This document shows positions 2,350 through 60,731 of a DNA stretch of 64,000 bases, piece by piece. Position numbers and translations under genes: made by a program. Under the pieces are notes generated by a model. The model saw only the letters and a program-made list of their open reading frames with translations. It was not told the DNA's origin and searched no databases. The stretch is taken from the NCBI GenBank assembly GCA_016214265.1, contig JACROU010000049.1, positions 9,589 to 73,588 of the forward strand, given 5' to 3'. The DNA comes from Candidatus Omnitrophota bacterium. GTDB lineage: Bacteria; Omnitrophota; Omnitrophia; Omnitrophales; JACROU01. The stretch's first letter is position 1; the number at the start of each line of letters is the position of its first letter.

Positions 2350-2366
2350 AAAGAGATAGAAAAATC

Positions 2367-4285: not shown

Positions 4286-5169
4286 TGAATGTGAATGATA
4301 CGGACGTGTTGGATGTCACGATTCTTCTCCCGGCTTATAATGAGGAAGAAGCTATCTTAAAAGTGATTGATGATGTTGAGCGTGCGATGTCAGGCACATC
4401 ATACAAATATGAAATTTTGGTTGTCGACGATGCTTCGAATGATAATACGGTTAAGCGCGCTGAGGAAAAACGGGTTCGTGTGATTCAACGTCCAATCCGC
4501 CAGGGGTCCGGGGCTTCACGTAAAACCGGCATTGTGAATGCGAAAGGGAAGATTATCGTTATGCTCGATGCTGACGGCACGTATACCGCCGCGGATATTC
4601 CGAACCTTCTGGCGTATTTTCCGGATTTTGATCAGGTCAACGGGGCTCGGACCAGCGAGCAGGGCACGATGAAGCTGCTTCGTACGCCCGCAAAATGGCT
4701 AATTCGCCAGTTTGCCTGCTATTTGACGGGAACCAAGATTCCAGATTTGAATACCGGGCTTAAAGCATTCAAAAAAGATATTATGATGAAATATTTGTGG
4801 GTGATGCCCAACGGATTTTCCTGTGTGACCTCGATGACGCTTGCGTTCCTGGTGAATGGCCATCGCGTCAAATACATTCCAACCGAGTATCATTCCCGCA
4901 TCGGAAAGTCGAAATTTCATCCCATTCGTGATGCGGCCAATTACATTAAAACGGTGATTCGCATGGTCATGTATTTTGATCCGCTCAAAGTGTTTTTGCC
5001 GCTTGGGGGTATTCTTTTACTTCTTGGAATTATCAAGTCGATATTCAGCCTTCTGGATACGCACAGTCTGCAGGAATCCGATGTAATTATATTTATGAGT
5101 GCGATTGTGGTTTTCGCGATAGGTTTTCTTGCGGATTTGATTGTTGCCTATCAAAAGCAGGGACGCTGA
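4273..5169 (+). CDS. GT2 polyprenyl-phosphate glycosyltransferase (ArnC/DPM1/GtrB-like) with C-terminal membrane anchor
   Basis: 298 aa. LLPAYNEE...[10 protein letters not shown] and the DAD motif MLDADGT identify a GT-A fold. Two predicted TM helices at the C-terminus ([34 protein letters not shown]) match the GtrB/ArnC family. Confidence 0.65.
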
Positions 5170-5180
5170 ATTACTAAGCT

Positions 5181-6818: not shown

Positions 6819-7768
6819 TCAAACGTGTGATTGCACTGATTCTTACGGTTCTGGTAGTTTTTGTTCTTATCAAATTGATCAATATTCAGGCATTTTTAGA
6901 GGCTCTTTCGCATCCTCGCTGGCCGGATTTGATTGCAGCCCTTCTTTTTTTTATTCCACTCGTTGGCATTACCGCGTTTCGTTGGCAAATTCTTGTTCAC
7001 AAAAGTTGTCATTGTTCCTTGTGGGAATCTGTCAAGCTGCAGCTTGCCTCGAATACGCTTAATTTAATTCTGCCGTCAAAACTTGGCGATTTATCGAAGG
7101 GCTATTTTTTGCGCAATACTGGCAAGGTGGATTTGTCGCGCGGGATGAATATCGTGATTTTTGAGAAGCTGATTGACCTGTCCAGCCTCGGGATTGTTTA
7201 CTTGACCGGACTTTGTTTTCACGGATATTTTGCGAAAGCCGATTATATCTGCCTTGGGCTCATCGTTTTCTTTATTGTGGCCACAGCGGCGATCTATTTT
7301 ATTCCACTTCGAATCATTCCGGGATACACCGCATTGCTTGCTTGGCTTGAAGGACGGGGAAAGTTATTAAGTAAAATCGGGTATTTCCTGGAGGACGGGC
7401 AAAAACTCATTTTTGCAATTCGTGAAAATAACCTTCAAATTATTTCGATTGTGGCGTTAAGCATTTTACTTTGGTTTTTGCATATGACTCAGGTGTATTT
7501 CTTTTTCCACACTGTTGGGGCGCTTCCAAATTTGATGACCGTTTTTCATTGGGCACCGATGGCAATTTTGGTGGGGCTGATTCCGGTGACGATTTCCGGA
7601 ATCGGGATTCGGGATGGGTCTTTTATGTTTCTTTTCAGAAGTTATGGTTCACAGGCGGTTTTGTTCGCAGCATCTGTTTTGATCACCCTCCGTTACATTA
7701 TTCCAGGCGTACTTGGGCTTTTTTTTATCAATCAGTACTTGGTTCGCAATACCGTTAAGCAAAAATAA
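6809..7768 (+). CDS. flippase-like multi-TM membrane protein (UPF0104 / LPG-synthase-TM-like)
   Basis: 319 aa with about 8 hydrophobic helices. Signature region LASNTLNLILPSKLGDLSKGYFL is typical of the flippase-like domain family that usually accompanies GT2 genes. Overlaps the upstream gene by 10 nt. Confidence 0.55.
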   Translation: MVMIKRVIALILTVLVVFVLIKLINIQAFLEALSHPRWPDLIAALLFFIPLVGITAFRWQILVHKSCHCSLWESVKLQLASNTLNLILPSKLGDLSKGYFLRNTGKVDLSRGMNIVIFEKLIDLSSLGIVYLTGLCFHGYFAKADYICLGLIVFFIVATAAIYFIPLRIIPGYTALLAWLEGRGKLLSKIGYFLEDGQKLIFAIRENNLQIISIVALSILLWFLHMTQVYFFFHTVGALPNLMTVFHWAPMAILVGLIPVTISGIGIRDGSFMFLFRSYGSQAVLFAASVLITLRYIIPGVLGLFFINQYLVRNTVKQK

Positions 7769-8477
7769 AATGACCCCATCTATCACTGTTGTTATCCCAG
7801 CTTATGATGAAGCTTCCAGACTTCCAAACACATTAAAGGAAATCAGAGACTTTTTGAGAGATTCGGGAATGGCTTATGAGGTGATTGTTGTCGATGATGG
7901 AAGCAAAGATGCAACGGTGGAAGTGGCGAAAAGTGAGCTAGCCGGAACTCCTCATTTGGTTCTGATCAACGGAAAAAATAGAGGAAAAGGATGTTGCGTG
8001 CGCAAGGGAATGCTGGCCGCGAGCGGAAAATATATTTTATTTACCGATGCTGATCTCTCGACGCCAATCCGTGAGTTGAATCGCATGATTCCTTATTTGG
8101 AAGATGGCTATGACATTGTGATTGGTTCCCGTGCTGTGCAGGACCCCGTTGTGAAGCGCGATATGGTGTGGTACAGGGAGATTATGGGGAGAACTTATAA
8201 TTTATTCGCACAGCTTATTTTGTTCCCAGGAATTACAGATTCGCAATGTGGGTTTAAATGTTTCAAACATGATGTGGCCCGTGATTTGTTTTCACGTCAA
8301 AAGCTCGAGGGTTTTTCTTTTGATGGGGAAATTCTTTATTTAGCCCGGAAACAAAAATACCGGATTAAAGAGCTTGCCGTTCACTGGTTCCAGGATCCAA
8401 AAAGCAAGGTCAAATTATTCAAAGATTCCATCCGGATGTTTTTCGAATTGATCAAAATTAGATTGTTACACGCTTAA
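7769..8477 (+). CDS. GT2 glycosyltransferase (polyprenyl/dolichyl-phosphate beta-glucosyltransferase-like, soluble)
   Basis: ATG at 7769 gives MTPSITVVIPAYDEASRL...VIVVDDGSKDAT...FTDADLSTP (DxD) with no TM segment. The longer 7713 start in the ORF track lies inside the upstream gene. Confidence 0.65.
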
Positions 8478-8480
8478 TTG

Positions 8481-9212
8481 TTAAGCAGTGGGGGAGTACT
8501 TTTTTGAGGAGCGGTAGCGCCAGAATGTGAGCGCTTCCCAAAGTGCAAATCCCATAATCCGCATGTTGACGGAAGATTTTCCCCAATGCCGGCCCCGGTG
8601 ATTGGAGGGGATTTCTTTGATTTTGAAATTCAGATCATGAGCTTTGATGATGATTTCCGGCAAAACAAATAGAGATTTTGAGCGCAAATTGATTTTGTTG
8701 AGTACATCACGCGACCAGGCCTGTGACCAGTTGTAATCATTGATGCGCAATTTAAACAGGAAGTTCAACAGAAAGATGTAAATAATAGACAGGAAAAACC
8801 GGAATAATTTGTATGCATTTCTCTGCCATCGGACGCCTAAAACGACGTCGGCACCCTCCACGCCATGATCGAGCAGGTTGACAAAATTGGGGATTTCAGT
8901 GCTGTCAAATTCTTCATCGGCGCCGATATACATTACGAATTTTCCGGTAGATTTGGCGATGCCGTCTTTTAGCGAGCGTGTATAGCCTTGATTATTCCCA
9001 TGAATCAGGAGCTGGGTTCGCGGATACTTTTTGACTTCTTCCTGAATTATTTTGAGGGTGCCGTCTTTGCTGCCGTCCTCAACGATAATAACCTCGGAAT
9101 TCCATTGGGGATTGGCCTCTGTCACACGGTGCAGGTTGCGGAGCATGTTGGCAATATTCTGCTCTTCGTTATAAACAGGGATAATGAAACTGATCAGGGG
9201 TTCGGTATTCAT
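8481..9212 (-). CDS. GT2 glycosyltransferase
   Basis: Minus-strand ORF. MNTEPLISFIIPVYNEEQNI...EVIIVEDGSKDGT...YIGADEEFD (DxD-like). The start at MNTEPL is preferred over the upstream Met. Convergent with the previous GT2; the stop codons are 3 nt apart. Confidence 0.6.
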   Translation of the reverse strand: MNTEPLISFIIPVYNEEQNIANMLRNLHRVTEANPQWNSEVIIVEDGSKDGTLKIIQEEVKKYPRTQLLIHGNNQGYTRSLKDGIAKSTGKFVMYIGADEEFDSTEIPNFVNLLDHGVEGADVVLGVRWQRNAYKLFRFFLSIIYIFLLNFLFKLRINDYNWSQAWSRDVLNKINLRSKSLFVLPEIIIKAHDLNFKIKEIPSNHRGRHWGKSSVNMRIMGFALWEALTFWRYRSSKKYSPTA

Positions 9213-9359
9213 CGGGGCGAGATGATAGCAAAATGAAAGCATTAATTAAACCCTCATTTTTTCATGCCGATAATATATAAGCCAATCGGGCATTGCTTTC
9301 AAAAGCCGATAACGTCAAGTATACTAATATGTAGTGAATAGCTTCCTCCTGGAGGAAAT

Positions 9360-14030: not shown

Positions 14031-15002
14031 ATGCCCTCAAATTCTCTCCAACAAGTTGTTCGAGCAATAGAAGATCGTGATAATTTTTTGCTCTCGGCAC
14101 ACATTTCTCCGGAAGGGGATTGTATTGCCAGCGCGTTAGCGCTTGATAGCCTGCTTGGAAAAATCCGAAAAAAATCATTTGTTTTGTGTGAGGATAAAAT
14201 TCCAGAACAGCTCTATTTTTTAGATAATGGACGCTGGAATACACTGAAAAGTAATCCGTCATTATTATATTCTTTCGATAACAGTATCGTAGTGGATTGT
14301 CCGGCGCTTGATCGAATCGGAAAAGTAAAAGATGTGATCGAGACGCGTAAAACATTTCTTATCAATATCGACCATCACATCTCTAATAAAAATTTTGGTG
14401 ATATTAATTTTGTGGATTCCGGGGCGGCCGCAACCGGTGAATTAATATATGATTTGTTCCAGGCTTTCAGAGTTCCGCTTGCCGATGATGATTTGCGTAA
14501 TATCTATGTCTCATTGTCAACAGATACGGGATCGTTTCGTTATTCCAATACGACGGCAAAGACTCACGAAATTGTCGCTGATTTATTGCGTCACGGATTG
14601 AAAACCGACAAGCTGAATGAGCAGCTGTACGATAGTGTCCCGCGGCGGAAAGTAGATTTGTTCCGCATTTTTCTTGCGCGATTGGAATTTGATGAGAACG
14701 GCAGTATAGCATCTGCAATTCTTCGTGATGAGGACTTAAAGGCAACAGGCTGCGCCAAAATTGATTTGGAGGGATTTGTGGAGTATTTGCGCTCCATCAT
14801 TGAAGTTCAGGTCTCATTTTTAATTTGTCAGCAAGGGGTGGATTCCCGTATTTCATTCCGTTCTAAGGGCAGTTTCGATGTCAATAAATTGGCAGGACTT
14901 TTTGGCGGAGGCGGCCACGCAAAAGCCGCAGGTTGTACGATTCACGCCCCAGTTGAAAAAGCAAAAAAACTCATTCTTGAACAAGTTCGAAAGTTGAAAT
15001 AG
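14031..15002 (+). CDS. nrnA: DHH/DHHA1 phosphoesterase (NrnA-like oligoribonuclease/pAp phosphatase)
   Basis: 323 aa. DHH motif NIDHHISN, DHHA1 motif GGGGHAKAAG, and the conserved position between rbfA and truB. Confidence 0.75.
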   Translation: MPSNSLQQVVRAIEDRDNFLLSAHISPEGDCIASALALDSLLGKIRKKSFVLCEDKIPEQLYFLDNGRWNTLKSNPSLLYSFDNSIVVDCPALDRIGKVKDVIETRKTFLINIDHHISNKNFGDINFVDSGAAATGELIYDLFQAFRVPLADDDLRNIYVSLSTDTGSFRYSNTTAKTHEIVADLLRHGLKTDKLNEQLYDSVPRRKVDLFRIFLARLEFDENGSIASAILRDEDLKATGCAKIDLEGFVEYLRSIIEVQVSFLICQQGVDSRISFRSKGSFDVNKLAGLFGGGGHAKAAGCTIHAPVEKAKKLILEQVRKLK

Positions 15003-27611: not shown

Positions 27612-27747
27612 AACCTTCCATTAGCCTCTTTAATTAGTCGTTAATTTGCAAGGATGCAGGGTGGAAGTTATACTTAGCTTGTGACGTCTAACTCATTTAT
27701 TTTAAAGTGGATAGAAGTTCTTTCGTCGCAATGACGGGGAGCACAAT

Positions 27748-28263
27748 ATGGAGTCTCAATCAAAGGGCCAACGAATTGGTGAAATTCTTCTGGATCACGG
27801 AATTTTGAGCAGGGAAGAATTAAACAAGGCTCTTGAAACCCAAAAGGCAAAGGGTGGGTTGATTGGAGCAATTTTGGTGAATAGTGGTTTTGTGAAGGAA
27901 GAGGATCTGGCCTTTGCATTAGCAAAGCAATTTAATTACCCCTTTCTTTCCTTGGATAACGTAACCGTGAATAGGAATTTGATGAAAGAGTTTGGCAGAG
28001 AATTTCTGCTTGAGAATTGCTTTGTGCCGATCGAAAAGACCCGTGATGTGCTGACGGTTGCACTGGCTGATCCTTCAGATGATGAAACCATCAAGAAAAT
28101 ACAATCAAAGACAAATTTGAGTATTTTGGCTTTTGTCGGTGGCGTAAAACAAATTGAAGAAATGATACGCAGGGTTTTTGGCGGAACCAAAGAAAGTGAT
28201 TCTATTAAAACGGATTCAATTTTAAAAAAAGCGGCAGAAGACAAAATGAAAGACAAGAAGTGA
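27748..28263 (+). CDS. standalone MshEN (c-di-GMP-binding) plus GspE/PilB N-terminal domain protein, no ATPase domain
   Basis: 171 aa. Residues 9-61 give RIGEILLDHGILSREELNKALETQ-KAKGG-LIGAILVNSGFVKEEDLAFALAKQ, i.e. two 24-residue MshEN motifs (RLGxxLLxxGLIxxxxLxxxLxxQ) separated by a 5-residue spacer. A GSPII_E_N-like region follows (FLSLDNVTVNRNLMKEF...LTVALADPSD). The protein ends before any Walker motifs. Confidence 0.7.
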   Translation: MESQSKGQRIGEILLDHGILSREELNKALETQKAKGGLIGAILVNSGFVKEEDLAFALAKQFNYPFLSLDNVTVNRNLMKEFGREFLLENCFVPIEKTRDVLTVALADPSDDETIKKIQSKTNLSILAFVGGVKQIEEMIRRVFGGTKESDSIKTDSILKKAAEDKMKDKK

Positions 28264-28288: not shown

Positions 28289-30034
28289 ATGGCAAAAAGT
28301 CTCCTCAATGAAAAACTGATTCGAAGAATGGTTGAAAAAGGGTTGATTCGCGCTGAGGATGCCGAATTGGTTTTGTCCAAAGGCGGTTCCCGGTCGGAAG
28401 TATCCCTGTTTAATGCTTTGGTGGAAAAAGACCTCTTGAGCGAAGATGAAATTTTCAACTTCCTCAAGGATGAATTTGGTTATCCTGCTGCCGATCCCAC
28501 GCATTTTACAATTACCCCGGAAGTTTTGAAGCTAATCCCGCAGGAAGTGGCTTTGGAACATAAAGTACTCCCATTATTTTTAATCGATAATGTCCTCACG
28601 ATAGCAACTTCAGATCCAACATCAATAATTGCGCTTGATGATATTCGTGCAAAATTGAAATTAAAATTCGACGTCATGCTTTGTCTCCCGAACAAATTGG
28701 ATGAAGCAATAGAGAAAAATTATACCCAATTTTCAGTCGCGGAAGTACCTCAAGGCCAAATCGAAGAGCTGATGAACATTGTTCAAAGGGATGACTCTGA
28801 TGTGAGCGATGAAGACGCTGCGGCGCTTCGACAGCAGGCTTCCGAAACTCCTGTAATCAAAGTGGCAAATTTGTTAATTGCAGAGGCCATACGGAAAAAT
28901 GCTTCAGACTTATTTGTTGAACCTTGGGAAAAATCCGTTCGTATCCGTATTCGGGTGGATGGTGTCCTGGAAGAACTGAAGGCTCCGCCAAAGTCTATGG
29001 CCAACGCTCTTATTTCCCGAATCAAGGTGATGAGTCAGTTAAATATTGCCGAACGACGTATACCGCAAGATGGTCGTTTTAAAGTAAAAATTCAAAATCG
29101 TGAAGTTGATGTGCGTGTTTCAGTAGTGCCGTCAAGTTTTGGCGAAAAAATTTGTTTGCGTATTCTTGATAAAAAAGGCACCGTTCTGCATTTGAATAAA
29201 TTGGGTTTTTTGGAAGAGGAACTTGAAAAAATCCGCCAATGCGCCTCAAAGCCCCACGGAATGATTTTGGTTACCGGACCCACTGGGAGTGGAAAGTCTA
29301 CGACGCTGTACTCAATTTTGAATTTGCTTCATAGCCCCGAAAAAAACATCACAACAGTCGAAGATCCCGTTGAATATCAAATAGCAGGGATCAATCAGGT
29401 GAATGTGCATGAAAATATCGGTCTGACTTTTGCCGCTGCGCTTCGATCCATTTTGCGGCAGGATCCCGACATTGTCATGATTGGTGAAATCCGTGACTTT
29501 GATACTTTGGATATCGCCATCAAAGCCGCGCTTACGGGACATCTGGTGTTGAGCACGCTTCACACGAATGACGCGATCAGTTCTTTGATCCGAATCCGTA
29601 ACATGGGCTTGGAACCTTTTCTTATTTCATCATCTATTTTGATGATATCAGCACAGCGCCTAGCCCGTCGGCTTTGTCAGCAGTGCCGCGAACCGTACAC
29701 GCCGGATCATGAGACTATCGAGCGTTATCATTTAACGGAAAAATCGGCGGGTGGACCCATTCAACTTTATCATCCCGTCGGCTGCCAGCATTGCGGAAGG
29801 AAGGGCTACCAGGGGCGCACTCTTTTGACCGAAGTCTTTCTTCTAACGCCTAAAATTAGATCTCTTATTATGACCCAGGTTTCTCAGGATGAATTGAAAC
29901 GGGCCGCAAAAGAGGAGGGAATGAGAACGCTGAGGGATACGGGAATTATTAAATCGCTCCAGGGAGAAACTTCGCTGGAGGAGGTAATTCGTTTGACTGC
30001 CGGGGAAATTGAAATCAGCAAAAATGCGACATGA
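28289..30034 (+). CDS. pilB: type IV pilus assembly ATPase PilB (GspE family)
   Basis: 581 aa. N-terminal GspE_N domains, Walker A GPTGSGKSTTLYS, Asp box, Walker B IVMIGEIRD, His box, and a C-terminal tetracysteine (CQQCRE...CQHCG). Confidence 0.85.
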   Translation: MAKSLLNEKLIRRMVEKGLIRAEDAELVLSKGGSRSEVSLFNALVEKDLLSEDEIFNFLKDEFGYPAADPTHFTITPEVLKLIPQEVALEHKVLPLFLIDNVLTIATSDPTSIIALDDIRAKLKLKFDVMLCLPNKLDEAIEKNYTQFSVAEVPQGQIEELMNIVQRDDSDVSDEDAAALRQQASETPVIKVANLLIAEAIRKNASDLFVEPWEKSVRIRIRVDGVLEELKAPPKSMANALISRIKVMSQLNIAERRIPQDGRFKVKIQNREVDVRVSVVPSSFGEKICLRILDKKGTVLHLNKLGFLEEELEKIRQCASKPHGMILVTGPTGSGKSTTLYSILNLLHSPEKNITTVEDPVEYQIAGINQVNVHENIGLTFAAALRSILRQDPDIVMIGEIRDFDTLDIAIKAALTGHLVLSTLHTNDAISSLIRIRNMGLEPFLISSSILMISAQRLARRLCQQCREPYTPDHETIERYHLTEKSAGGPIQLYHPVGCQHCGRKGYQGRTLLTEVFLLTPKIRSLIMTQVSQDELKRAAKEEGMRTLRDTGIIKSLQGETSLEEVIRLTAGEIEISKNAT

Positions 30035-30045
30035 GGTGACATGCG

Positions 30046-31740
30046 ATGAATCGTCAAGAAATGCAGAGCTTATTGGTGGAAGAAGGCATCGTCAGTCGTG
30101 AGGCCATGGATCGAGCCCGTCTGCTTCAGGCAGAAAAAGGGGGAGAGCTTATTTACATTCTTGTGAATGAGGGGCTGATGAAGGAACGGGATTTTACCTG
30201 TTTTATGTCCCGTCATCTTGGAATACCATTTATTTCGCTTCCATCGATTCATCTTGTCCATGATCTGGTTCGTCTAATTCCACAAAAGTTGGCCTACCGA
30301 TACGACGCTATAGTTGTCAGTAAATTATCCAACATTCTTACTGTGGCTATGCCGGATCCTCTTAATATTCTTGCGATTGATGATTTGAAGCAGGCGACGG
30401 GACTGCAAATTATTCCGGTGCTAGCGTCAGTCAGTGAAATCAGAAATTGTCTGGATGAGCAATTCCAAACCTCAGAGCATCTTTCAGAAGTTATTGAGTC
30501 TGTAGAGGATAGTGATATCAAAGTGATTGAAGAATCGTCAGAAACAGAATTGATGGACGTAAAAGAAACAGACGTGCCGCTTATCCGAATGGTAAATCTT
30601 GTACTTCAAGACGCGATTAAACAGCGCGCTTCTGATATTCATTTTGAGCGGTATGAAGACAAGTTTCGAATTCGTTACCGCATTGACGGCGTATTAAAAG
30701 AAGCCGTAATGCCGCCGGTTCGAATGCATCCGACAGTGACTGCGCGACTTAAAATTTTGTCAACGCTTGATATCACCGAGAAAAGATTGCCACAGGATGG
30801 CCGGTTCAAAATCCGTCTCGGTAATAAAGAAATCAATTTTCGTGTTTCGGTTTTACCAACTTATTATGGTGAAAAGGTCGTGCTTCGCATTTTGGATACC
30901 ACCTCGCTTTCTTTTGGTTTGGAGCGTCTAGGATTTAACGCGGTAGATTTAAAAAAACTAAAAGAAGCTATCGAAAAACCGTACGGTATGATTTTGATTA
31001 CGGGGCCGACTGGAAGTGGTAAATCAACAACGCTGTATTCCATTTTAAGTAAATTGAATACATCCGAACGTAACATCATGACGATTGAAGATCCTGTGGA
31101 ATATCAGCTGGAAGGAATTACACAGACTCAAGTGCATCCAGAAATTGGACTTACGTTTGCCAACGGTCTTCGTTCTCTCTTGCGGCAGAATCCCGATATT
31201 ATTCTTGTTGGAGAAATTCGTGATGGTGAAACAGCAGATATTGCTGTAAAGGCGGCGCTGACGGGGCATTTGCTATTTAGCACACTTCATACCAACAGTG
31301 CGGCCGGGGCCATTACGCGGCTGGTGGATATGAATGTTGAGCCATTTTTGATAGGCGCCTCGCTTCTTATTTCCGTCGCTCAGCGTCTTTGCCGGCGGAT
31401 TTGTGAGAATTGCAAAGAAAAAGTGGATATTCCCAACAATGTGTTAAAGCGGCTTAAAATCAAAGATGATATTTGGGGCGATGGCAAGGCTTTTCAGGGA
31501 AAAGGATGCAACGTTTGTCATGGTACGGGCTATCTCGGACGAATGGCTTGCAGCGAATCGCTTATTGTTGATGACCCAATCCGGGAAATGATTCTGGCGC
31601 GAAAATCCAGTTTTGATATTCAGACTCATGCGATTAAAAATGGAATGAAGACTTTGTTCGAAGATGCCGTCGATAAGTTTGCGAAAGGTTATACGACGCT
31701 TCAGGAAGTTTTGAGAATTACTTCAGAAGAGATGATTTAA
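30046..31740 (+). CDS. second PilB/GspE-type secretion ATPase (full length, N-terminal domain retained)
   Basis: 564 aa. Walker A GPTGSGKSTTLYS, Walker B IILVGEIRD and a tetracysteine CENCKE...CNVCHG. The N-terminal about 150 aa are GSPII_E_N-like. Not PilT-like, since PilT lacks the N-domain and is about 350 aa. Confidence 0.8.
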   Translation: MNRQEMQSLLVEEGIVSREAMDRARLLQAEKGGELIYILVNEGLMKERDFTCFMSRHLGIPFISLPSIHLVHDLVRLIPQKLAYRYDAIVVSKLSNILTVAMPDPLNILAIDDLKQATGLQIIPVLASVSEIRNCLDEQFQTSEHLSEVIESVEDSDIKVIEESSETELMDVKETDVPLIRMVNLVLQDAIKQRASDIHFERYEDKFRIRYRIDGVLKEAVMPPVRMHPTVTARLKILSTLDITEKRLPQDGRFKIRLGNKEINFRVSVLPTYYGEKVVLRILDTTSLSFGLERLGFNAVDLKKLKEAIEKPYGMILITGPTGSGKSTTLYSILSKLNTSERNIMTIEDPVEYQLEGITQTQVHPEIGLTFANGLRSLLRQNPDIILVGEIRDGETADIAVKAALTGHLLFSTLHTNSAAGAITRLVDMNVEPFLIGASLLISVAQRLCRRICENCKEKVDIPNNVLKRLKIKDDIWGDGKAFQGKGCNVCHGTGYLGRMACSESLIVDDPIREMILARKSSFDIQTHAIKNGMKTLFEDAVDKFAKGYTTLQEVLRITSEEMI

Positions 31741-31789: not shown

Positions 31790-33016
31790 ATGCCCAAGTT
31801 TGAATATTTAGTCAAAGACTCTCAGGGACGAGACGTGAAAGGTATTCAGGAAGCGCAGGATGCCGGTTCCCTCATTGCGGATTTTCATAAACGTGGTTTT
31901 GTCATTGTTCAGATCAATCAGCTTAAAGAAACAGCCGGACTATTTTCCGTCAAACGTGAAGGAAGTAAAAAGCGGGGGAGAAAAATCAAATTAGAAGATA
32001 TGGTGGTTTTCTCAAGGCAACTTGCCACCATGATCAACGCCGGCGTTCCTCTGGTTCAGTCTCTGGATATTTTGGGTGAGCAAATGGACAACCCCTCATT
32101 TCAGGAGGTTGCCAGGAAGCTAAAATCGAGTGTTGAGGGCGGAAAAAGTTTCTCGGAAAGTCTGGATGAACACAAAAAGGTATTTTCGACCCTATTCATT
32201 AATATGGTGCGAGCGGGTGAATCGAGCGGAAAATTGGACGAAATTCTTGATCGATTATCCGCCTATATGGAGAAAACAAATGCTTTAATTAATAAAGTCC
32301 GGTCCGCGATGATTTATCCAGCGGTTGTTACGAGCGTAGCGTTGATTATAACTTATGCGATGTTTACTTTCGTAATCCCCAAGTTCGCGGAAATTTTTTC
32401 CACGCTAGACGCCAAACTTCCCTTGCCGACACAGATTGCTATCAGCGCCAGCTATTTTGTTCGAAAAAACTCATTATTTATTCTTGGGTCGATTGCGCTG
32501 ATCGTTTTTTTTCTTCGAACAATTGTCCGAACACGGAACGGGCGGTTGTGGTTTGACCGGACATTGTTAACGCTTCCGGTTGTGGGCCCGCTATTTGTCA
32601 AAGTTGCTGTTAGTAAATTTAGTCGCACGTTAGCCACACTAGTAAAGAGCGGCGTTCCGATTCTAACAGCTCTTGAAATTGTGTCCAAGACAGCTGGTAA
32701 TCTTCAAATTGAAATTGTGATTGATCAGCTTCGAACGTCGATCAAGGAGGGCGGCGGTATTGCCGGGCCGCTTTCAAAAAGCAAATATTTCCCGCCAATG
32801 GTAACCCGAATGATTGCCGTGGGTGAGGAGACAGGAGAAATGGAGCAGATGCTTGGAAAAATTGCAGATTTTTATGATCAGCAGGTAGACAACGCGGTGC
32901 AGGGAATTACGTCTCTGATCGAGCCGATGATCATCGTGTTTCTCGGTGTTGTGATTGGAGGAATTGTTATCGCCATGTTCTTGCCGATTTTGACGATTAC
33001 GCAAGCGATTAAGTAG
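31790..33016 (+). CDS. pilC: type IV pilus platform protein PilC (GspF family)
   Basis: 408 aa. Two GspF repeats (e.g. FSRQLATMINAGVPLVQSL and FSRTLATLVKSGVPILTAL) and three TM segments. Confidence 0.85.
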   Translation: MPKFEYLVKDSQGRDVKGIQEAQDAGSLIADFHKRGFVIVQINQLKETAGLFSVKREGSKKRGRKIKLEDMVVFSRQLATMINAGVPLVQSLDILGEQMDNPSFQEVARKLKSSVEGGKSFSESLDEHKKVFSTLFINMVRAGESSGKLDEILDRLSAYMEKTNALINKVRSAMIYPAVVTSVALIITYAMFTFVIPKFAEIFSTLDAKLPLPTQIAISASYFVRKNSLFILGSIALIVFFLRTIVRTRNGRLWFDRTLLTLPVVGPLFVKVAVSKFSRTLATLVKSGVPILTALEIVSKTAGNLQIEIVIDQLRTSIKEGGGIAGPLSKSKYFPPMVTRMIAVGEETGEMEQMLGKIADFYDQQVDNAVQGITSLIEPMIIVFLGVVIGGIVIAMFLPILTITQAIK

Positions 33017-33026
33017 AGGGGGAGCA

Positions 33027-34268
33027 ATGGTTTTGGATGTATTCGTGCTTAATGTCAGAACGTTTATTGTGGCAAGGCTCCTCGTTGCTACGATTCTTTT
33101 GTGCCTGGGGTTCTGGACTTATCCTCAGCATCGGTGGCTCTTTTCCGTTCTCGTTATTTTTCTTTGTGTTCTTAGCATTGTTTATATCCTGTGGTTTTTG
33201 TCCGGCAAGAAAATTCGAGGATTGGCTTATACCCAAATTTTGATTGATCTGATTTGGGAAAGTGCTTTGGTGCACTTTACCGGTGGGATAGACAGTGTCT
33301 TTATTGTTTTTTACGTGATTACAATTTTGGGTTCTGCATTGGTTCTTCCGGCGAAAGGGAGTATCTGGACGACACTATTAACCTGCATTATTTTTAGCTT
33401 ATTAATTTTATTCGAGTTCGTTAATTTAAATTTTCCTGGGCATTTTATTTTAAGGCGTTATTACAATCTCAGAGACTGGTTTCCAATATTTTATCTTGCG
33501 CTAGTGAGGATGACAATTTTTGGGATCGTGGGTTATCTGGGAACTTATTTATCAGTCCGGATATACAATTTGGAAAAAAAGCTTAAAAATCAGGAACAAT
33601 TGACTAATTTAGGCGAGCTAACGGCGAGAATTGCTCACGAAATAAAAAATCCTCTAACAGCGATTAGCGGTACAGTTGAGGTGTTAAGTAAAGAGCTAGA
33701 ACCGCAGCTTTCTGATGAGAACAAGCATTTGATGCAAAGCGTTGTCAAAGAGACGCGAAGGTTAAAAAATATCTTAACTTCAATTCTAGATTATTCACGT
33801 GTGGATACGGTACATCGGGAATATTTTGATTTATCGCAAGCGATTGAGGAAGTGCTTGCGGTGGCCGGTAATGCGCCTCAGAAAAATGGGAAGGTGCATA
33901 TCATTAAGACATTTGATAGAAAGCCGTTAAGATTTTACGGAGATTCAAACCGTATTAAACAAATGCTGTTCAATTTGGTTCTCAACGCTTATGAGGCAAT
34001 GCCCGTGGGCGGGGATTTGGTGTTGACAATCCGAAGCGAGGGGGAAGAACAGGTTGTGATTTCCATCATGGATAGTGGAAAGGGCATTTCAAAAGAAATG
34101 CAGAAGGTTCTGTTTCAGCCGTTCCATTCCACAAAACATGGTGGAACAGGTTTGGGCTTAGCCATTGTGCAAAAAATTGTAGAAAACCATGGCGGTAAAA
34201 TTACGGTTCGAAGCCAGGCTGGATTAGGAACGGAATTTATTATTCAACTGCCTTTGTTAGCAAAGTGA
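33027..34268 (+). CDS. pilS: sensor histidine kinase (PilS-like; six-TM sensor domain)
   Basis: 413 aa. N-terminal polytopic membrane domain, HisKA H-box ELTARIAHEIKNPLTAISG, and HATPase_c N, G1 and G2 boxes (NLVLNAYEAM, DSGKGI, GGTGLGLAIV). Confidence 0.7.
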   Translation: MVLDVFVLNVRTFIVARLLVATILLCLGFWTYPQHRWLFSVLVIFLCVLSIVYILWFLSGKKIRGLAYTQILIDLIWESALVHFTGGIDSVFIVFYVITILGSALVLPAKGSIWTTLLTCIIFSLLILFEFVNLNFPGHFILRRYYNLRDWFPIFYLALVRMTIFGIVGYLGTYLSVRIYNLEKKLKNQEQLTNLGELTARIAHEIKNPLTAISGTVEVLSKELEPQLSDENKHLMQSVVKETRRLKNILTSILDYSRVDTVHREYFDLSQAIEEVLAVAGNAPQKNGKVHIIKTFDRKPLRFYGDSNRIKQMLFNLVLNAYEAMPVGGDLVLTIRSEGEEQVVISIMDSGKGISKEMQKVLFQPFHSTKHGGTGLGLAIVQKIVENHGGKITVRSQAGLGTEFIIQLPLLAK

Positions 34269-35655
34269 AATATATGGATAAGAAAACGATACCGGTCATG
34301 ATTATCGATGATGAAGAAAGTATACTTAATTTTATGAGCAAGGCTCTGAAGAAGGAAGGCTACGAGCCGCATTGTTTTGTGGAGCCGCGCCTTGCGACGG
34401 CGAAGCTCTCGACGGTAAATCCACAAATCGTGATTACTGATATTGTGATGCCTACTATGAACGGCCTCCAGGTTTTGGAAGCGGTGAAGCAATTTAATGT
34501 GGAGACTAATGTGATTTTGATTACGGCTCATGCCTCAGTGGAATCTGCGATTTCCGCCATGAGGGGAGGTGCTTTTGATTACATTACGAAACCATTTGAG
34601 ATTGATGAATTAGTAGTGACGCTGAAAAGGGCGTTGAGTTCGAAACGACTAAATACGGTTTTTCCCGCAATTGAGAAGAAGACTCAATCCATGTATCAGG
34701 TTTCCAAATTGATCGGCAACAGCCCTAAGATGCACGAGATTTACCGGCTATTGGAAAAGGTTGCTAAGTCAGACAGTACGGTATTGGTGGTTGGCGAGAG
34801 CGGCACGGGAAAAGAAATGGTGGCGAGGGCGATTCATTACAGTTCTCCCCGAAAGTCAAATCCGTTTGTAAGCGTTAACTGTGCGTCATTGCCTGATCAG
34901 TTGCTTGAAAGCGAATTGTTTGGTCACGAGAAAGGTTCATTCACGGGAGCGTTGGCAACAAAACCAGGATTACTTGAGTTGGCTCACGGAGGCTCGTTTT
35001 TGCTTGATGAAGTGGGGGATATGTCATTGCCGGTTCAGGCGAAACTGCTCCGGGCTCTCCAGGAGCGTGAAATAAAACGGGTGGGAGGTATCGAAAACAT
35101 TCCTGTCGATGTCCGGATCATTGCTGCCACCAGCAAGGATCTACAAGCTGAAATCGAAAAGAAAAATTTTCGGGAAGATTTGTTTTACCGCCTCAATGTT
35201 ATCCCGATTTTTTTGCCTCCTTTAAGAGAACGTCGTGAGGACATCCCTGAATTGATATCGCATTTTATCGGATATCTAAAAGAAAAATATCATATGCCCA
35301 AAGAATTGGAGTTTTTGCCAGACGGAATGGATTACTTAATGACTTATCATTGGCCGGGCAATATTCGCGAGTTAGAAAATATCGTTGAAAGAATTTTTAT
35401 GCTCGCCGAAAAAAAATCGCTTGGCAGAGATGATATTGTTCAGCTGTTGGGCACAGAATTGCGTTCTGTGAAGGATATGACGCGCGGCGGTACGATGCTG
35501 ATCGAACTCAAAAATGAAACCGAGAACGTTTTGAAAAGAAGGCGATTGAGCAGGCACTCGAGCAATCGCATGGAAATAAACTTCAGGCAGCTAAACGGCT
35601 TCATATTAGTCGTCAGACGCTGCAGTATAAAATCAAAAAGTACAACTTGGAATAG
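34265..35655 (+). CDS. pilR: sigma54-dependent response regulator (PilR/NtrC family), with an apparent -1/+2 frameshift before the C-terminal Fis-type HTH
   Basis: REC domain (VMIIDDEESIL...ITDIVMP), sigma54 AAA+ domain (GESGTGKE, ESELFGHEKGSFTGA, GNIRELEN). The track frame ends in nonsense (ENVLKRRRLSRHSS...). The frame shifted by -1/+2 reads ...FEKKAIEQALEQSHGNKLQAAKRLHISRQTLQYKIKKYNLE* (canonical HTH) and stops at 35653-35655, but is closed upstream by TGA at 35515-35517. The shift therefore lies between 35518 and 35533 (AAAA/TTTT runs). Confidence 0.75.
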
Positions 35656-35834
35656 GCCAGTTTTTAGGACAAAGTGCAAAATTTTTTTACATTCGGAAGT
35701 TGGTAAGGCTGTTTTTGACAAAATAAAAAGCTTCAGACTATATAGAAATAACCCGAAAATTATAAACGCTTAGTTGGCATCCTATTTGTTGCCATAAATA
35801 CGTACCATGATTTTCCAAAGGAGGTAATCATAAA

Positions 35835-36272
35835 ATGTTAACTAAATTAAATTCCAAAAAAGGATTTACCCTCGTAGAAATTATGATTGTGGTGGCCATT
35901 ATTGGTTTGTTAGCGGCTATCGCAATTCCTAACCTCTTGAGGGCTCGTTTGAACGCGAATGAATCAGCAGCAAAATCGTCACTCCGTACGTTGAGCACAG
36001 CTTGTGAAAGTTTCAGGGCTGCACAGAATCCGCCGAGTTATCCGGCGAATTTAGCCGCGCTCTCTGGAGCAAATCCACCGTATATCGATGCAACACTGGC
36101 TGGCGGAACTAAACAAGGCTATACATTCACTTATACTTTGGTGAACGTAAATCAATATACGTGCACAGCTGCGCCGACAACGGCTAATATTACTGGAGTG
36201 AATACTTTTTTTGTTGATGAAACGGGGGTGATTCGCTTTAACAATGCTGCGGGTAACCCAATAGAAGGCTAA
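35835..36272 (+). CDS. pilA: type IVa major pilin (prepilin with N-terminal methylation motif)
   Basis: 145 aa. Leader MLTKLNSKKG followed by FTLVEIMIVVAIIGLLAAIAIP (class III signal, Phe+1/Glu+5). C-terminal Cys pair for the disulfide loop. Strong RBS AAAGGAGG. Confidence 0.8.
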   Translation: MLTKLNSKKGFTLVEIMIVVAIIGLLAAIAIPNLLRARLNANESAAKSSLRTLSTACESFRAAQNPPSYPANLAALSGANPPYIDATLAGGTKQGYTFTYTLVNVNQYTCTAAPTTANITGVNTFFVDETGVIRFNNAAGNPIEG

Positions 36273-36290
36273 TTCTCTTTCGAATACATT

Positions 36291-36336
36291 GGGGCACTAT
36301 CTCAAATGGTAGTGCCCTGGTGTATTTTCTTATTTC
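36291..36336 (+). terminator. intrinsic terminator/attenuator hairpin downstream of pilA
   Basis: Stem GGGGCACTAT (36291-36300) / ATGGTAGTGCCCT (36307-36318; 8 perfect bp GGGCACTA/TAGTGCCC) with loop CTCAAATG, followed by a T-rich tract GGTGTATTTTCTTATTTC. Confidence 0.55.
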
Positions 36337-36359: not shown

Positions 36360-37445
36360 ATGTCGAACACGGAATTGAAGTCAACAATCTCTAGGGCTGG
36401 TAGCGAACTTTTTCAAAAAGCTCGCGAGTTAGTGCGTCCTGAAATTGCCCGTTTTTCCACAGGCCTTCACATCGGTAAACAAAACATTATTCTGAGCGAG
36501 TTTGAAATAAAAAAAGATGAAACTATTCTCCTGAATTTAACTCACGAAAAAACCGCAGCTTCTTCTGATCGAAATTTGGAATTGTTGACCCGGCTTTATG
36601 CCAAAGAAGGTTATGAATTTCAGCATGTCGCGGTTTCGGTTCCGCGTGAATCCGCAGTAGTTCGCATTATTACCTTTCCGTTGATGGATGAAAAACAATT
36701 AAAAACTTCGCTCGAGTTTGAAGCAGAAAAATATGTCCCCTTTAATCTTTCGGAGATTTATTTTGATTGTCAGTCGCTGATGGGTAAAGAGCAGCGATCA
36801 GGCATGCGGCAGATGAAAGTGCTTCTGGCGGCATGTAAGCGGGATGTCATTATGGGGTTGATTCAGCAGATACAGAAAGCACGGGGACAAGTGGATGCTA
36901 TCAATTTAGATTCACTGGCCACTCTTAATGCTTTCCTCCGAACACAGGCCAAAGAACCTCTACCATCATCGGCGCTTCTGGATATTGGAACAAATGTTTC
37001 TAATTTGAGTTTGATGGAAAATAATCAAATTGTTTTCTTGCGCGATATTTCATTTGGCGGTGCTGATTTGTCTCAGACACTCACAAAAAACCTTCAGATT
37101 TCAGCAGATGAGGCAGAGGCAGTTAAGACCGGCGTTCAGGCCGGAACCGCCCCTTATGAGCCGCTGCTGCGAGCGGTTATCGAAAAAATTATTCACGAAG
37201 TCAAAATTACGATTCATTACGTTGAAGGACAATTGGGTAAACCCATGAATATGAAACAACTGCATCTTGCCGGCGGAATGGCTCGAAATCCACTTCTTCA
37301 AGAGTCAATTCGGAATTTGCTCGGATTAGAGCCTGTAATTTGGGATCCGCTTAAAGGAGTCAAGATTGCAAGTTGGGTGAACGCAGATTTGGTTAAGGAA
37401 TTCGAGACGGTGCTTCCAGTCAGCGTGGGATTGGCGCTTAGTTGA
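36360..37445 (+). CDS. pilM: type IV pilus assembly protein PilM (actin-like ATPase fold)
   Basis: 361 aa. PRESAVVRIITFPLMDEKQLKTSLEFEAEKYVPFNLSEIYFDCQ matches the conserved PilM core. Sits in the canonical pilMNOPQ position. Confidence 0.7.
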   Translation: MSNTELKSTISRAGSELFQKARELVRPEIARFSTGLHIGKQNIILSEFEIKKDETILLNLTHEKTAASSDRNLELLTRLYAKEGYEFQHVAVSVPRESAVVRIITFPLMDEKQLKTSLEFEAEKYVPFNLSEIYFDCQSLMGKEQRSGMRQMKVLLAACKRDVIMGLIQQIQKARGQVDAINLDSLATLNAFLRTQAKEPLPSSALLDIGTNVSNLSLMENNQIVFLRDISFGGADLSQTLTKNLQISADEAEAVKTGVQAGTAPYEPLLRAVIEKIIHEVKITIHYVEGQLGKPMNMKQLHLAGGMARNPLLQESIRNLLGLEPVIWDPLKGVKIASWVNADLVKEFETVLPVSVGLALS

Positions 37446-37457
37446 TAGGGCGAAACT

Positions 37458-38114
37458 ATGATTACAATTAATTTGCTTCCGACAGAATTTCGCAGAAAAA
37501 TCGAACAACCCCATGTTATCTCTTTGCGGTTTGGGATGATAGTGGCATGTCTCATAGTGTTTGTTTTGTGGATTAGTCTGGCTTTTATGGTAGGCACAGC
37601 AAAAAGAGAAATGGACAATATGTCCGGCGATTGGAAACGGTTGGAGACTGGATCTAAGGAAGCAGACAAGATTATGCTAGATATTAATCAGAATTTTTTA
37701 GAGCGCAAGAAAACTTGTGATCTCATTTCCATATCTGATATGTCATGGGCTTACGTTTTGAATCAAATAAGCGATTTGATTCCCGATAGTGCCTGGCTTA
37801 GGAAAATCAAACTATCCTCATCTGGAATGGATGAGTGGGAATTTTGGATGAAAGGAATTGAGAAAGCGCCTGAAGATGAGCCGGCGATTAAATCTATTGG
37901 TCATTATATCAGCGCGATTAAGCCGACCTTAGAGCAGGATGAAAAGCAAAAAACAAAAACTGCTGTACCGGGAGCGGGTTCCAGAGAATTGAACGTGCAA
38001 ACATCGACGGCACAGGAAACAATCAATAACAATGTGCTGACTTCGTTTGAGGCGACTTTTACGATGAAAGGCAAGCAAGATGAAAGTGTTCGGGATAAAC
38101 ATAAATCTTCCTGA
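37458..38114 (+). CDS. pilN: type IV pilus assembly protein PilN
   Basis: 218 aa. N-terminal MITINLLPTEFRRK (INLLP motif), a single TM helix and a periplasmic domain. Confidence 0.65.
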   Translation: MITINLLPTEFRRKIEQPHVISLRFGMIVACLIVFVLWISLAFMVGTAKREMDNMSGDWKRLETGSKEADKIMLDINQNFLERKKTCDLISISDMSWAYVLNQISDLIPDSAWLRKIKLSSSGMDEWEFWMKGIEKAPEDEPAIKSIGHYISAIKPTLEQDEKQKTKTAVPGAGSRELNVQTSTAQETINNNVLTSFEATFTMKGKQDESVRDKHKSS

Positions 38115-38682
38115 TCTGAAGTTTGCGGATCCAAAAGAAGCGAAATTCATCGCGATGACGGGAGGTATTGTCCTTGTCGCGCTTCTGATCGGGGTTGTGC
38201 CGAATATTTATCAGCTTTTCCATGTCACGTCAAAAATAACTCAAATGAAATCGAAGTCGCGAATTGCAGAGGAAAAAATTAAAAATCTACCACAACTCAG
38301 AAATAAGTTAAAAGCATACGTTTCTCAAATCGACGAACTTGAAGAGCAGTTTTTTGATGTGGATCAGGTTGCCGAACTGATTGGAATGATTTCAGAATTA
38401 GCGAAGGAATCCGGGGTGATCATTCTTTCATCCAAGCAGTTCGAATATAAAGGAAACGATGTTGTTGCCAAGAATCCATTTTATAAACCTATCTTGTTGA
38501 AGCTCGAGCTAGAGGGTCGCTATCACAATTTTGGTAAATTCGTGAATTTGCTGGAGCGGCATTCCAAACTAATCCTTCTTTCGGAGATGAGCATTGAACA
38601 GTCGGAAAAGAAAAAAGATGCACTTGCGATTGAGCTGAGTATTCTGACCTTTTTGAAAGTGGGGCGGGAGGTTTCATCATGA
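38080..38682 (+). CDS. pilO: type IV pilus assembly protein PilO-like
   Basis: 200 aa. Single N-terminal TM (IAMTGGIVLVALLIGVV), a coiled-coil segment and a periplasmic domain. Position between pilN and pilP. The start is uncertain because of overlap with pilN. Confidence 0.55.
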   Translation: MKVFGININLPDLKFADPKEAKFIAMTGGIVLVALLIGVVPNIYQLFHVTSKITQMKSKSRIAEEKIKNLPQLRNKLKAYVSQIDELEEQFFDVDQVAELIGMISELAKESGVIILSSKQFEYKGNDVVAKNPFYKPILLKLELEGRYHNFGKFVNLLERHSKLILLSEMSIEQSEKKKDALAIELSILTFLKVGREVSS

Positions 38683-39032
38683 AAAAGATTCTGCTTGTGC
38701 TGGTTATATTGTCCGGAGCGTTTATTCAGGGGCAATTTTTGATAGCTTCACAGGATGGATTTTTGTATGATAGCCATAAGCATCGTGATCCTTTTGTCCC
38801 TTTGATAGGCCCCGGAGCTCAGGCTGGCGATCAACCAGATCTTTCAGTATCGAGCATTAAGCTAGAAGGTATTGTGGTCGATCCTAAACAAGGCTCGTTT
38901 GTCATGGTTGATGGCGAGGTTTATGAGGAAGGGCACAAGATCGGTCCTTATTTGATTGAAAAAATTGAAGCAAAACGGGTAATTTTGAAATATAATAAAG
39001 AACATTACGAGCTGCGTTTAAGCGAAGATTAA
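38679..39032 (+). CDS. pilP: PilP-like small periplasmic pilus protein
   Basis: 117 aa. Signal/lipobox-like N-terminus MKKILLVLVILSGAF, conserved RDPFVPL motif and a beta-rich C-terminus. Position immediately before the secretin. Confidence 0.5.
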   Translation: MKKILLVLVILSGAFIQGQFLIASQDGFLYDSHKHRDPFVPLIGPGAQAGDQPDLSVSSIKLEGIVVDPKQGSFVMVDGEVYEEGHKIGPYLIEKIEAKRVILKYNKEHYELRLSED

Positions 39033-39071
39033 TTATCCGTAACCTCATAAGTATCCACAATTAAGGATTGC

Positions 39072-40565
39072 ATGAAGCAAATTATATCCTTGATGTTAGC
39101 TCTTTTAATGACGGTTCCCGCATACGCTCAGACTCTCGTACGGGCGCAGGATCCCACACCCGCTGTCGACTCAGGTAAAGACAAGGCAACTGTTGCTAGC
39201 CAAGATAATCTTCCTCCTGGAAATGTTAATCTTGATTTTAAAGAAGCGGATATCAAAAACGTGCTTCGCGTGATTGCTCTGAAGGGCGGGGTGAATATTG
39301 TCGCTGGTCCCGAGGTGGCGGGAACGGTAACAGTCCGACTTCAAAATGTTCCGTGGGAAAAGGCTTTAGAAGTAGTGCTTAAAACTTACGGGTACGTATT
39401 TGAACGTGACGGAAATGTGGTGCGTGTGACTACAAAAGACAAAGTGGCTCAGGAAGAATTGGAAACGAAGACATTTTTCTTGAATTACTCGACGGCAACA
39501 GAAGTTATGGATTCGATTTCAGAATTGTTGTCAGATCGCGGAAAAGTAAAAGCGAATGTTCGGACGAATACTATTATCGTGACGGATGTGGCCGCCAATC
39601 TTTACAAAATTTCGCAAGTGGTTGCGAATTTGGATCGACGGACGCCGCAGGCTTATATCGATTCGAAAATTATTAATACGCAGCTTGATAAGTCGGAGAA
39701 TTTGGGAATAAATTGGAATGTTGCCGGAACTCTACAGGGTGCGGCCGTGCCAACGACGTTTCCGTTTGATTCGGGAAGAGGAACGCCGTTGGGAGGTGCT
39801 GGAGGGTCGTTTTTTCCTATTTTACAACCTGGAGGAACACCGATTCCCAATCCGACAAATCCGCGAGCATTTCCTCAATTGGCTGTAGCTACGGCAAATG
39901 TTGCAAGCGAAACTTATACTCTTGGAACTTTGAGTTTGGCAGCTTTTGCAGCAACACTGAATTTGTTAAGGACGCGAACGAACACAAAGATTGTTTCAAA
40001 TCCGCGTATTGTCGTTTTAAATAATCAAACAGCAAAGGTGCAGGTAGGGCAGGAAATTTACATTCCACATTTTGAATTAAATGAACAAACAGGTGCTTAT
40101 GTAATTAATGATTTTGAACATAAAGATATCGGGGTGGTCATGAATGTGACTCCCCATATTAATACTGCGGAAGAAATCATGGTTGAAGTTAAACCAGAAG
40201 TGAGTACGCAGGGACCCAACGTGGTTTACACCCCAACATTGAGCGCTCCCACATTCAACAAAACGGTTGCATCAACTCAAGTGTTGATTCGAGATGGCGA
40301 GACGATTGCGATTGGGGGATTGATGACAGATAATCGTGCATCAACGTATACGCGGGTTCCTTTTTTTGGTGATCTTCCATGGGTGGGTAATGTATTCAGG
40401 GCAAAACGGGAAACAGCTGATGCCACTAACAGAAAGGCAGAAACCCTTTTCTTTGTCACAGTAGGCATTATAGATACAGAAGGACAGCTTACTCGTGAAA
40501 CATTACATCCCCAATTAGATCAAGTTGCAGGTGCTGCCGTTACTGGAGCAAAGGCAACTTCGTAA
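39072..40565 (+). CDS. pilQ: type IV pilus secretin PilQ (GspD family)
   Basis: 497 aa. Signal peptide ending AYAQ, N0/secretin-N domain (NVLRVIALKGGVNIVAGPEV), and the secretin C-domain (TKIVSNPRIVVLNNQTAKVQVGQEI...LIRDGETIAIGGL...VPFFGDLPWVGNVFR). Confidence 0.8.
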   Translation: MKQIISLMLALLMTVPAYAQTLVRAQDPTPAVDSGKDKATVASQDNLPPGNVNLDFKEADIKNVLRVIALKGGVNIVAGPEVAGTVTVRLQNVPWEKALEVVLKTYGYVFERDGNVVRVTTKDKVAQEELETKTFFLNYSTATEVMDSISELLSDRGKVKANVRTNTIIVTDVAANLYKISQVVANLDRRTPQAYIDSKIINTQLDKSENLGINWNVAGTLQGAAVPTTFPFDSGRGTPLGGAGGSFFPILQPGGTPIPNPTNPRAFPQLAVATANVASETYTLGTLSLAAFAATLNLLRTRTNTKIVSNPRIVVLNNQTAKVQVGQEIYIPHFELNEQTGAYVINDFEHKDIGVVMNVTPHINTAEEIMVEVKPEVSTQGPNVVYTPTLSAPTFNKTVASTQVLIRDGETIAIGGLMTDNRASTYTRVPFFGDLPWVGNVFRAKRETADATNRKAETLFFVTVGIIDTEGQLTRETLHPQLDQVAGAAVTGAKATS

Positions 40566-58789: not shown

Positions 58790-58801
58790 AGGGCCTCTTT
58801 A

Positions 58802-60729: not shown

Positions 60730-60731
60730 GC

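Follow-up and report, generated by a model that had tools for sequence, protein, structure and literature searches.

A stand-alone MshEN protein encoded at the head of an Omnitrophota type IV pilus operon is a candidate trans-acting c-di-GMP receptor

The type IV pilus operon of a Candidatus Omnitrophota bacterium begins with a gene whose 171-aa product is an MshEN domain only; its c-di-GMP motif is intact, and it lacks an ATPase. We analyzed the entire 64-kb stretch of DNA that carries this gene (here, the window) together with related Omnitrophota loci. The protein appears to be a stand-alone c-di-GMP receptor that relays the signal in trans to the pilus motor, a reading to which we assign a probability of roughly 0.6. 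Other loci across the phylum show the same gene order, and the protein is therefore probably a separate subunit that passes a c-di-GMP signal to the motor. The gene and the parts of its product are as follows:

27748..28263, forward strand: stand-alone MshEN gene, 171 aa, heading the pilus operon (open reading frame and translation)
27772..27843, forward strand: c-di-GMP motif I, residues 9 to 32, RIGEILLDHGILSREELNKALETQ, matching 11/11 key positions
27844..27858, forward strand: spacer KAKGG, 5 residues, the canonical length
27859..27930, forward strand: c-di-GMP motif II, residues 38 to 61, LIGAILVNSGFVKEEDLAFALAKQ, matching 10/11 key positions of the classic motif and 11/11 of the extended (R/K/L) motif
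27931..28191, forward strand: MshEN_C/T2SSE_N1-type subdomain, residues 62 to 148 (Pfam PF05157; strands and helices of the AF2 model)
28192..28260, forward strand: Lys-rich C-terminal tail, residues 149 to 171, with the conserved segment ILKKA.E.K.K.KK

An earlier reading, made from the sequence alone, had proposed this open reading frame with its two 24-residue motifs and KAKGG spacer, and both the translation and the coordinates agree with it. The whole motif occupies 53 residues, 9 to 61 (27772-27930), of the 171-aa protein. As the reference, we used the consensus (R/K/L)LGxx[LVI][LVI]xxG[LVIF][LVI]xxxxLxxxLxxQ for each motif, present in two copies with a 5-residue spacer, as derived from PMC5013675 and PMC11731258. 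Of the 22 key positions of the published motif, 21 are present in the protein; residue 38 is Leu where the motif calls for Arg, and allowing R/K/L at the first position brings the count to all 22. The motifs had been called near-perfect; motif I is complete, and motif II departs from the classic form only at its first position.

Profile searches bear out the proposed MshEN identity. The NCBIfam model NF053729 (“c-di-GMP_motif,” MshE related) matches the protein over 53/53 model positions at 64.7 bits (E = 4.6e-18), against a curated cutoff of 38 bits, and the Pfam MshEN model PF05157 matches residues 62 to 148 at 57 bits, against a cutoff of 23.1 bits. When all six frames of the 64-kb window are scanned with the relaxed Wang et al. 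motif, 27772-27930 is the sole site returned. As the sequence-only reading had described, a GspE_N-like domain (the PF05157 match at 62 to 148) follows the motifs and the protein then stops: the chain ends at residue 171, and Pfam finds no match to the T2SSE ATPase domain (PF00437) in it. The C-terminal T2SSE domain with Walker A that marks a PilB/GspE assembly ATPase is absent, and the model TIGR02538 aligns only over its positions 2 to 154, at 70 bits against a cutoff of 675 bits. Alignment of the motif to Vibrio cholerae MshE, suggested as a check, gives coinciding residue numbers throughout, with both proteins in the same register (R9, G11, G18, L25, L29, Q32, G40, G47, L54, L58, and Q61).

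The predicted structure is that of an MshEN domain. An AF2 model built from an alignment of seven sequences (mean pLDDT, 82) has helices at residues 10 to 16, 22 to 35, 39 to 45, and 51 to 62, followed by three strands with flanking helices, which together form an N-terminal four-helix bundle and an alpha/beta N1 subdomain. The top PDB matches of this model in Foldseek are 5HTL, which is MshE with c-di-GMP (E = 5e-10; TM-score, 0.72, target normalized), and the c-di-GMP-bound GSPII-B domain of Thermus PilF. The tail (residues 149 to 171) has low pLDDT and is modeled as a low-confidence helix. Residues L159, K160, K161, and K166 of the tail are invariant in the clade of 170- to 179-aa proteins, and the 145- to 157-aa class of the stand-alone MshEN family has no Lys-rich tail. 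The tail could be a membrane- or partner-binding peptide.

Two published sets of measurements bear on ligand binding. The GSPII-B domain of Thermus PilF has Leu (L196) at position 1 of motif II and binds c-di-GMP with a Kd of 6 nM; the L196R substitution weakens binding fourfold, and the authors widened the consensus to (R/K/L)LG (PMC11731258). Because this domain carries the same residue and binds at 6 nM, Leu38 is no defect and accords with tight binding. The V. cholerae MshEN variant G11L shows no detectable binding, and G40I binds 72-fold more weakly (PMC5013675). The 171-aa protein probably binds c-di-GMP. Motif scans of the open reading frames and domain searches detected no GGDEF, EAL, HD-GYP, or PilZ genes within the 64-kb window. 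Hydrolysis of c-di-GMP yields pGpG, which NrnA-like enzymes can break down. A gene for a DHH/DHHA1 (NrnA-like) phosphoesterase is located at 14031-15002 in a nusA-infB-rbfA-truB operon, and no other gene in the window has even a remote connection with c-di-GMP turnover.

The protein belongs to a large family. It is identical to the hypothetical protein HZC17_06180 of a Candidatus Omnitrophica metagenome-assembled genome (MAG), and six orthologs from independent samples share 56 to 77% identity with it, are 170 to 179 aa long, and keep both the stop position and the motif. Residues I10, G11, L14, G18, L25, L29, Q32, G36, G37, L38, G40, L43, V44, L54, L58, and Q61 are invariant in the orthologs, and position 9 is R or K. 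A phmmer search of 1.84 billion representatives yielded 15,610 matches at E ≤ 0.001. Among the best 150 of these are 46 proteins of ≤230 aa, nearly all initiated by Met, most of which keep the motif well and usually have Leu at position 1 of motif II. Searching with a profile of 20 of these short proteins yielded >4,000 matches at E ≤ 1e-10; the best 120 are all 140 to 250 aa long with MshEN as the only Pfam domain, and the organism-named matches of this search are all Candidatus Omnitrophica or Omnitrophota. Each of the 10 stand-alone MshEN proteins that we tested passes NF053729, with scores of 54.9 to 71.8 bits. Scanning GTDB genomes with patterns drawn from the ortholog alignment recovered one further ortholog (L006) and also hit three unrelated MshEN fusions, two of them NfrB-like glycosyltransferases and one a multidomain PilB. 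In another class of 210 to 221 aa (P0170; L013, 7001-7639), two consecutive MshEN_N four-helix modules precede the N1 subdomain, and proteins of this subclass could have two c-di-GMP sites each.

Two PilB paralogs are encoded immediately downstream of the MshEN gene:

28289..30034, forward strand: PilB1, 581 aa, with a degenerate MshEN motif (T2SSE, 472 bits; TIGR02538, 645 bits)
30046..31740, forward strand: PilB2, 564 aa, with a degenerate MshEN motif (T2SSE, 457 bits)

Both paralogs are full length, as TIGR02538 aligns over positions 1 to 562 of 564 in PilB1 (residues 9 to 570) and over positions 2 to 563 of 564 in PilB2. Both also retain their N-domains (Pfam MshEN, 64 and 61 bits, respectively), which had been described earlier as carrying degenerate motifs. 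NF053729 does not match PilB1 of the window, and it matches PilB2 at 24.6 to 27.6 bits, under the cutoff. PilB1 keeps 10 to 11 of the 22 key positions and PilB2 keeps 15, and neither protein has Gly at the positions equivalent to residues 11 and 40 (G11->Q and G40->I in PilB2). The description is thus right, because substitutions at these two glycines (G11L and G40I) cripple MshEN binding (PMC5013675). In the window's clade, every PilB1 and every PilB2 (five of each) likewise scores under the NF053729 cutoff and lacks Gly11 and Gly40. In the sister clades that are linked to GGDEF genes, the PilB1 proteins score 43 to 64 bits and three of the five PilB2 proteins score 43 to 49 bits, above the cutoff; both ligand-facing glycines are replaced here as well, in PilB1 mostly by Thr or Ser (RLTELLI... 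or RLSDILI...). Because these sister-clade PilBs pass NF053729, the statement that the motif is intact only in trans is firm only for the window's clade. The tandem pair of full-length PilBs is constant in related Omnitrophota pil clusters. We found no PilT in the pil cluster of the window.

The remainder of the cluster and its flanking elements are as follows:

27645..27674, forward strand: possible sigma-70-like promoter, weak (9/12 positions matched), within the 136-nt gap upstream of the MshEN gene
31790..33016, forward strand: PilC platform protein (Pfam T2SSF, 226.6 bits)
33027..34268, forward strand: PilS-like histidine kinase (HisKA and HATPase_c; weak 6TM_PilS)
34265..35773, forward strand: PilR-like sigma-54 activator with an apparent frameshift near 35524 (Response_reg, Sigma54_activat, and AAA_lid_14)
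35835..36272, forward strand: major pilin candidate (N_methyl motif)
36282-36327: terminator-like hairpin with a 20-bp stem, after the pilin gene
36360..40565, forward strand: pilM, pilN-like, pilO, pilP-like, and pilQ (secretin) genes (PilM_2, PilO, T2SSB, and Secretin/STN)

The cluster is a complete type IVa set in the order mshEN-pilB1-pilB2-pilC-pilS-pilR-pilA, followed by pilMNOPQ. The T2SSB match of the pilP-like gene, at 27.0 bits, is slightly under its cutoff of 28.4 bits, and the pilN-like open reading frame (37458-38114) has no Pfam match. Sigma-70-like sites in the region of the possible promoter are no more numerous than in shuffled sequence. A GGGGAG Shine-Dalgarno-like sequence lies 5' of the MshEN ATG. 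The pilB1 gene starts 25 nt past the MshEN stop with an AGGAGG Shine-Dalgarno sequence, and the 25-nt gap contains no terminator-like site. The PilR-like protein is 82% identical to its orthologs over residues 1 to 417 and then continues with 85 unrelated residues, and the Fis-type helix-turn-helix (HTH_8-type) C terminus, ending in GNKLQAAKRLHISRQTLQYKIKKYNLE and a stop codon, sits in another frame. This break near 35524 is either an assembly error in the MAG or a genuine loss of the DNA-binding domain. Elsewhere in the window, genes on the reverse strand at 57773-62611 encode a MoxR AAA ATPase, a DUF58 protein, a BatA/VWA protein, a VWA protein, and a TPR protein, a set that resembles a Bat aerotolerance-type operon and includes a 314-aa open reading frame (59782-60729) with no Pfam match. 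A 545-aa open reading frame (5181-6818), also with no Pfam match, lies within a sugar-nucleotide/glycosyltransferase cluster at 167-9242.

The association of the MshEN gene with the motor genes extends well beyond the window. The stand-alone gene is directly upstream of two pilB genes in 10 of the 11 contexts that we read. The order MshEN-PilB-PilB-PilC is kept in L001, L004, L006, and L010, and the L005 sequence stops after PilB1. L001 and L004 keep the full order MshEN-PilB-PilB-PilC-kinase-regulator-pilin-PilM, and the order in L006 and L010 is kept to the kinase or regulator, where the sequence that we read stops. L010, a member of the window's clade, shares its layout. The genes upstream of the cluster in L004 are unrelated to those of the window, indicating that what is conserved is the association with the pil genes rather than the neighborhood as a whole.

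Seven of the contexts (L010 to L016) are those of family relatives, and in five of them, all from distant Omnitrophota, a GAF-GGDEF gene immediately precedes the MshEN-PilB-PilB module. The genes preceding the module are located as follows:

L011: 4442-6994
L012: 3288-6988
L013: 5589-7004
L014: 5677-7041
L016: 3335-7038

The GAF-GGDEF protein has a HAMP match in four of these five loci, and PilT (3/5) and an HD_5 (HD-GYP-type) protein (2/5) are also encoded upstream of the module, so that the sister layout reads [HD_5]-GAF-GGDEF-[PilT]-stand-alone MshEN-PilB-PilB-PilC. L014 has a large GGDEF/HEAT protein in place of PilC. Of the indirect evidence for c-di-GMP as the ligand and the pilus motor as the target, the strongest is that a diguanylate cyclase gene repeatedly heads the module. 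The genes abut or overlap in the sister loci; the spacing is a 25-nt gap in the window, with abutting genes in L011 and a 4-nt overlap in L014, and such tight spacing fits cotranslation. The window's clade has no GAF-GGDEF, PilT, or HD_5 gene at that position and instead has PilS/PilR inside the cluster. The remaining relative, the 249-aa protein P0054 of L015 (7001-7750), is MshEN-only and does not adjoin pilB; its gene is placed after pilMNOPQ, an RNase G gene, and a deacetylase gene and before rplU-rpmA-obg. P0054 shows that the stand-alone MshEN family has members outside the motor operon. As a prediction, the trans-acting sensor is well supported by these genome comparisons.

The sequence-only reading had also suggested that the module was split off from the PilB ATPases, and the comparison of N-domains does not support this. 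In a neighbor-joining tree of the N-domains from nine loci, the stand-alone proteins form one clade apart from both PilB groups, and identity averages 43% among the stand-alone proteins compared with 25 to 27% to the PilB N-domains. Because both PilBs keep whole N-domains and the stand-alone proteins branch separately, the evidence argues for an old, separately maintained paralog rather than a recent split. A recent fission of a (MshEN)2-T2SSE PilB is unlikely on the same grounds, given the separate clade and the ~25 to 27% identity to the adjacent PilB N-domains.

In the mechanism that we propose, c-di-GMP would be clamped by the paired 24-residue motifs in the N-terminal four-helix bundle, and the loaded MshEN protein would dock on the pilus motor, most plausibly at the degenerate N-domains of PilB1 and PilB2 or at the PilM/PilC platform that those domains contact. 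MshE-type ATPases have their c-di-GMP input built in, in cis, and the stand-alone MshEN would thereby provide it in trans. We infer, with better than even odds, that the protein works on the motor as a subunit of its own, and by analogy with MshE the likely effect of its loaded form would be to license pilus extension. A more elaborate scheme, which we offer tentatively, is that the Omnitrophota motor may consist of three cotranslated parts, two PilBs with blunted sensors and an MshEN protein with the only high-affinity site, fed by the GAF-GGDEF protein encoded upstream in most lineages and forming a local circuit that gates extension.

A serious rival, although we consider it unlikely, is that the protein is a c-di-GMP-gated competitor or decoy, whose N1-type subdomain fills the docking site on PilM/PilC and either inhibits extension or switches the PilB paralog in use. 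N1 domains of GspE bind GspL, the PilM homolog. The 171-aa protein has kept a full MshEN_C/N1 subdomain that is homologous to the PilB N-domains, the N1 folds 2BH1 and 4PHT are weak, partial matches of its model (E of about 0.9), and the PilB paralogs are always paired, which would provide something to switch between. However, no sequence feature separates a decoy from an activator, and c-di-GMP binding promotes assembly in the characterized MshE/PilB systems (PMC5013675; PMC7096442).

It is improbable that the protein is a ligand-independent accessory subunit, or a receptor with a nonpilus target such as exopolysaccharide or transcription, which owes its place in the operon to coregulation. 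Such a role would be in keeping with the absence of c-di-GMP turnover genes from the 64-kb window, with the orphan PA3740, which is linked to swarming and not to a pil operon, and with the location of P0054 away from pilB. Yet the ligand-contacting positions are all invariant in the orthologs, all 10 tested stand-alone proteins pass the c-di-GMP motif model, and in 10 of 11 contexts pilB follows the gene directly, at near-zero spacing. That the gene is a truncated third pilB, a pseudogene, or the N-domain of PilB1 severed by a frameshift or assembly artifact, as the apparent frameshift in the nearby pilR of the same MAG might suggest, is effectively refuted by the full-length PilB1 with its own N-domain, the conserved stop codon and 170- to 179-aa length in six orthologs from independent samples, the >100 MshEN-only relatives, and the strong Shine-Dalgarno sequence before pilB1.

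[quoted passage not shown] If the trans-acting receptor is real, a conserved free MshEN between a cyclase gene and a PilB pair would mean that the domain can serve, in addition, as a subunit that diffuses or docks. Such an arrangement would offer a simple system for studying transmission from MshEN to the ATPase ring, which is hard to address in fusions. The lifestyle of Omnitrophota is thought to depend on attachment to other cells, and our results point to c-di-GMP-controlled pili in this uncultured phylum.

The individual elements of this arrangement have precedents, and the novelty claimed for a trans-acting sensor was overstated, although the conserved, tight linkage to motor genes fits that proposal. 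Stand-alone MshEN proteins and trans control by c-di-GMP of a PilB with a degenerate N-domain are already known, and the family is abundant in public data. In the literature that we searched, which covered only a minority of subscription-journal papers, we found no description of a free MshEN gene heading pil operons or of the Omnitrophota expansion. Stand-alone architectures were tabulated in 2016 as “MshEN-xT2SSE_N1” for Pseudomonas aeruginosa PA3740 and (MshEN_N)2 for cce_1044 (PMC5013675, Supplementary Table 4); the same study reports c-di-GMP binding and a swarming phenotype for PA3740, and it lists ATPases of the tandem type (MshEN)2-4-T2SSE as well (PMC5013675). Like PA3740 and Cyanothece cce_1044, the Omnitrophota protein is MshEN-only without an ATPase, and it has the PA3740-type architecture. 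PA3740 differs in its link to swarming and not to a pil operon and in its highly diverged N1 subdomain, and the likeness lies in the architecture.

The FimX-PilZ-PilB system of Xanthomonas and Pseudomonas (7LKM, 7LKN, and 7LKO) likewise combines a separate c-di-GMP sensor with a PilB whose MshEN-like N-domain does not bind the ligand, and this PilB N-domain is a structural match to our AF2 model. There, however, the sensor is an EAL domain that acts via a PilZ adaptor and has an unrelated fold, and the likeness is functional only; no EAL or PilZ motif occurs in any open reading frame of the window. The closest relatives in fold are the cis systems. V. cholerae MshE (5HTL), Clostridium perfringens PilB2, and Myxococcus xanthus PilB have the same domain, a four-helix MshEN_N with an N1-type subdomain, and such ATPases share the tandem 24-5-24 motif in the same register, with MshE as the best structural match. 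In contrast to the MshE type, the Omnitrophota MshEN is a separate polypeptide without an ATPase, its linked ATPases are degenerate, and its motif II has Leu for Arg. That Leu is shared with GSPII-B of Thermus thermophilus PilF (8PDK), and the structural alignment with this domain shows 31% identity. PilF carries three MshEN domains in tandem, GSPII-B among them, fused to its ATPase, whereas the Omnitrophota domain is encoded by a gene of its own.
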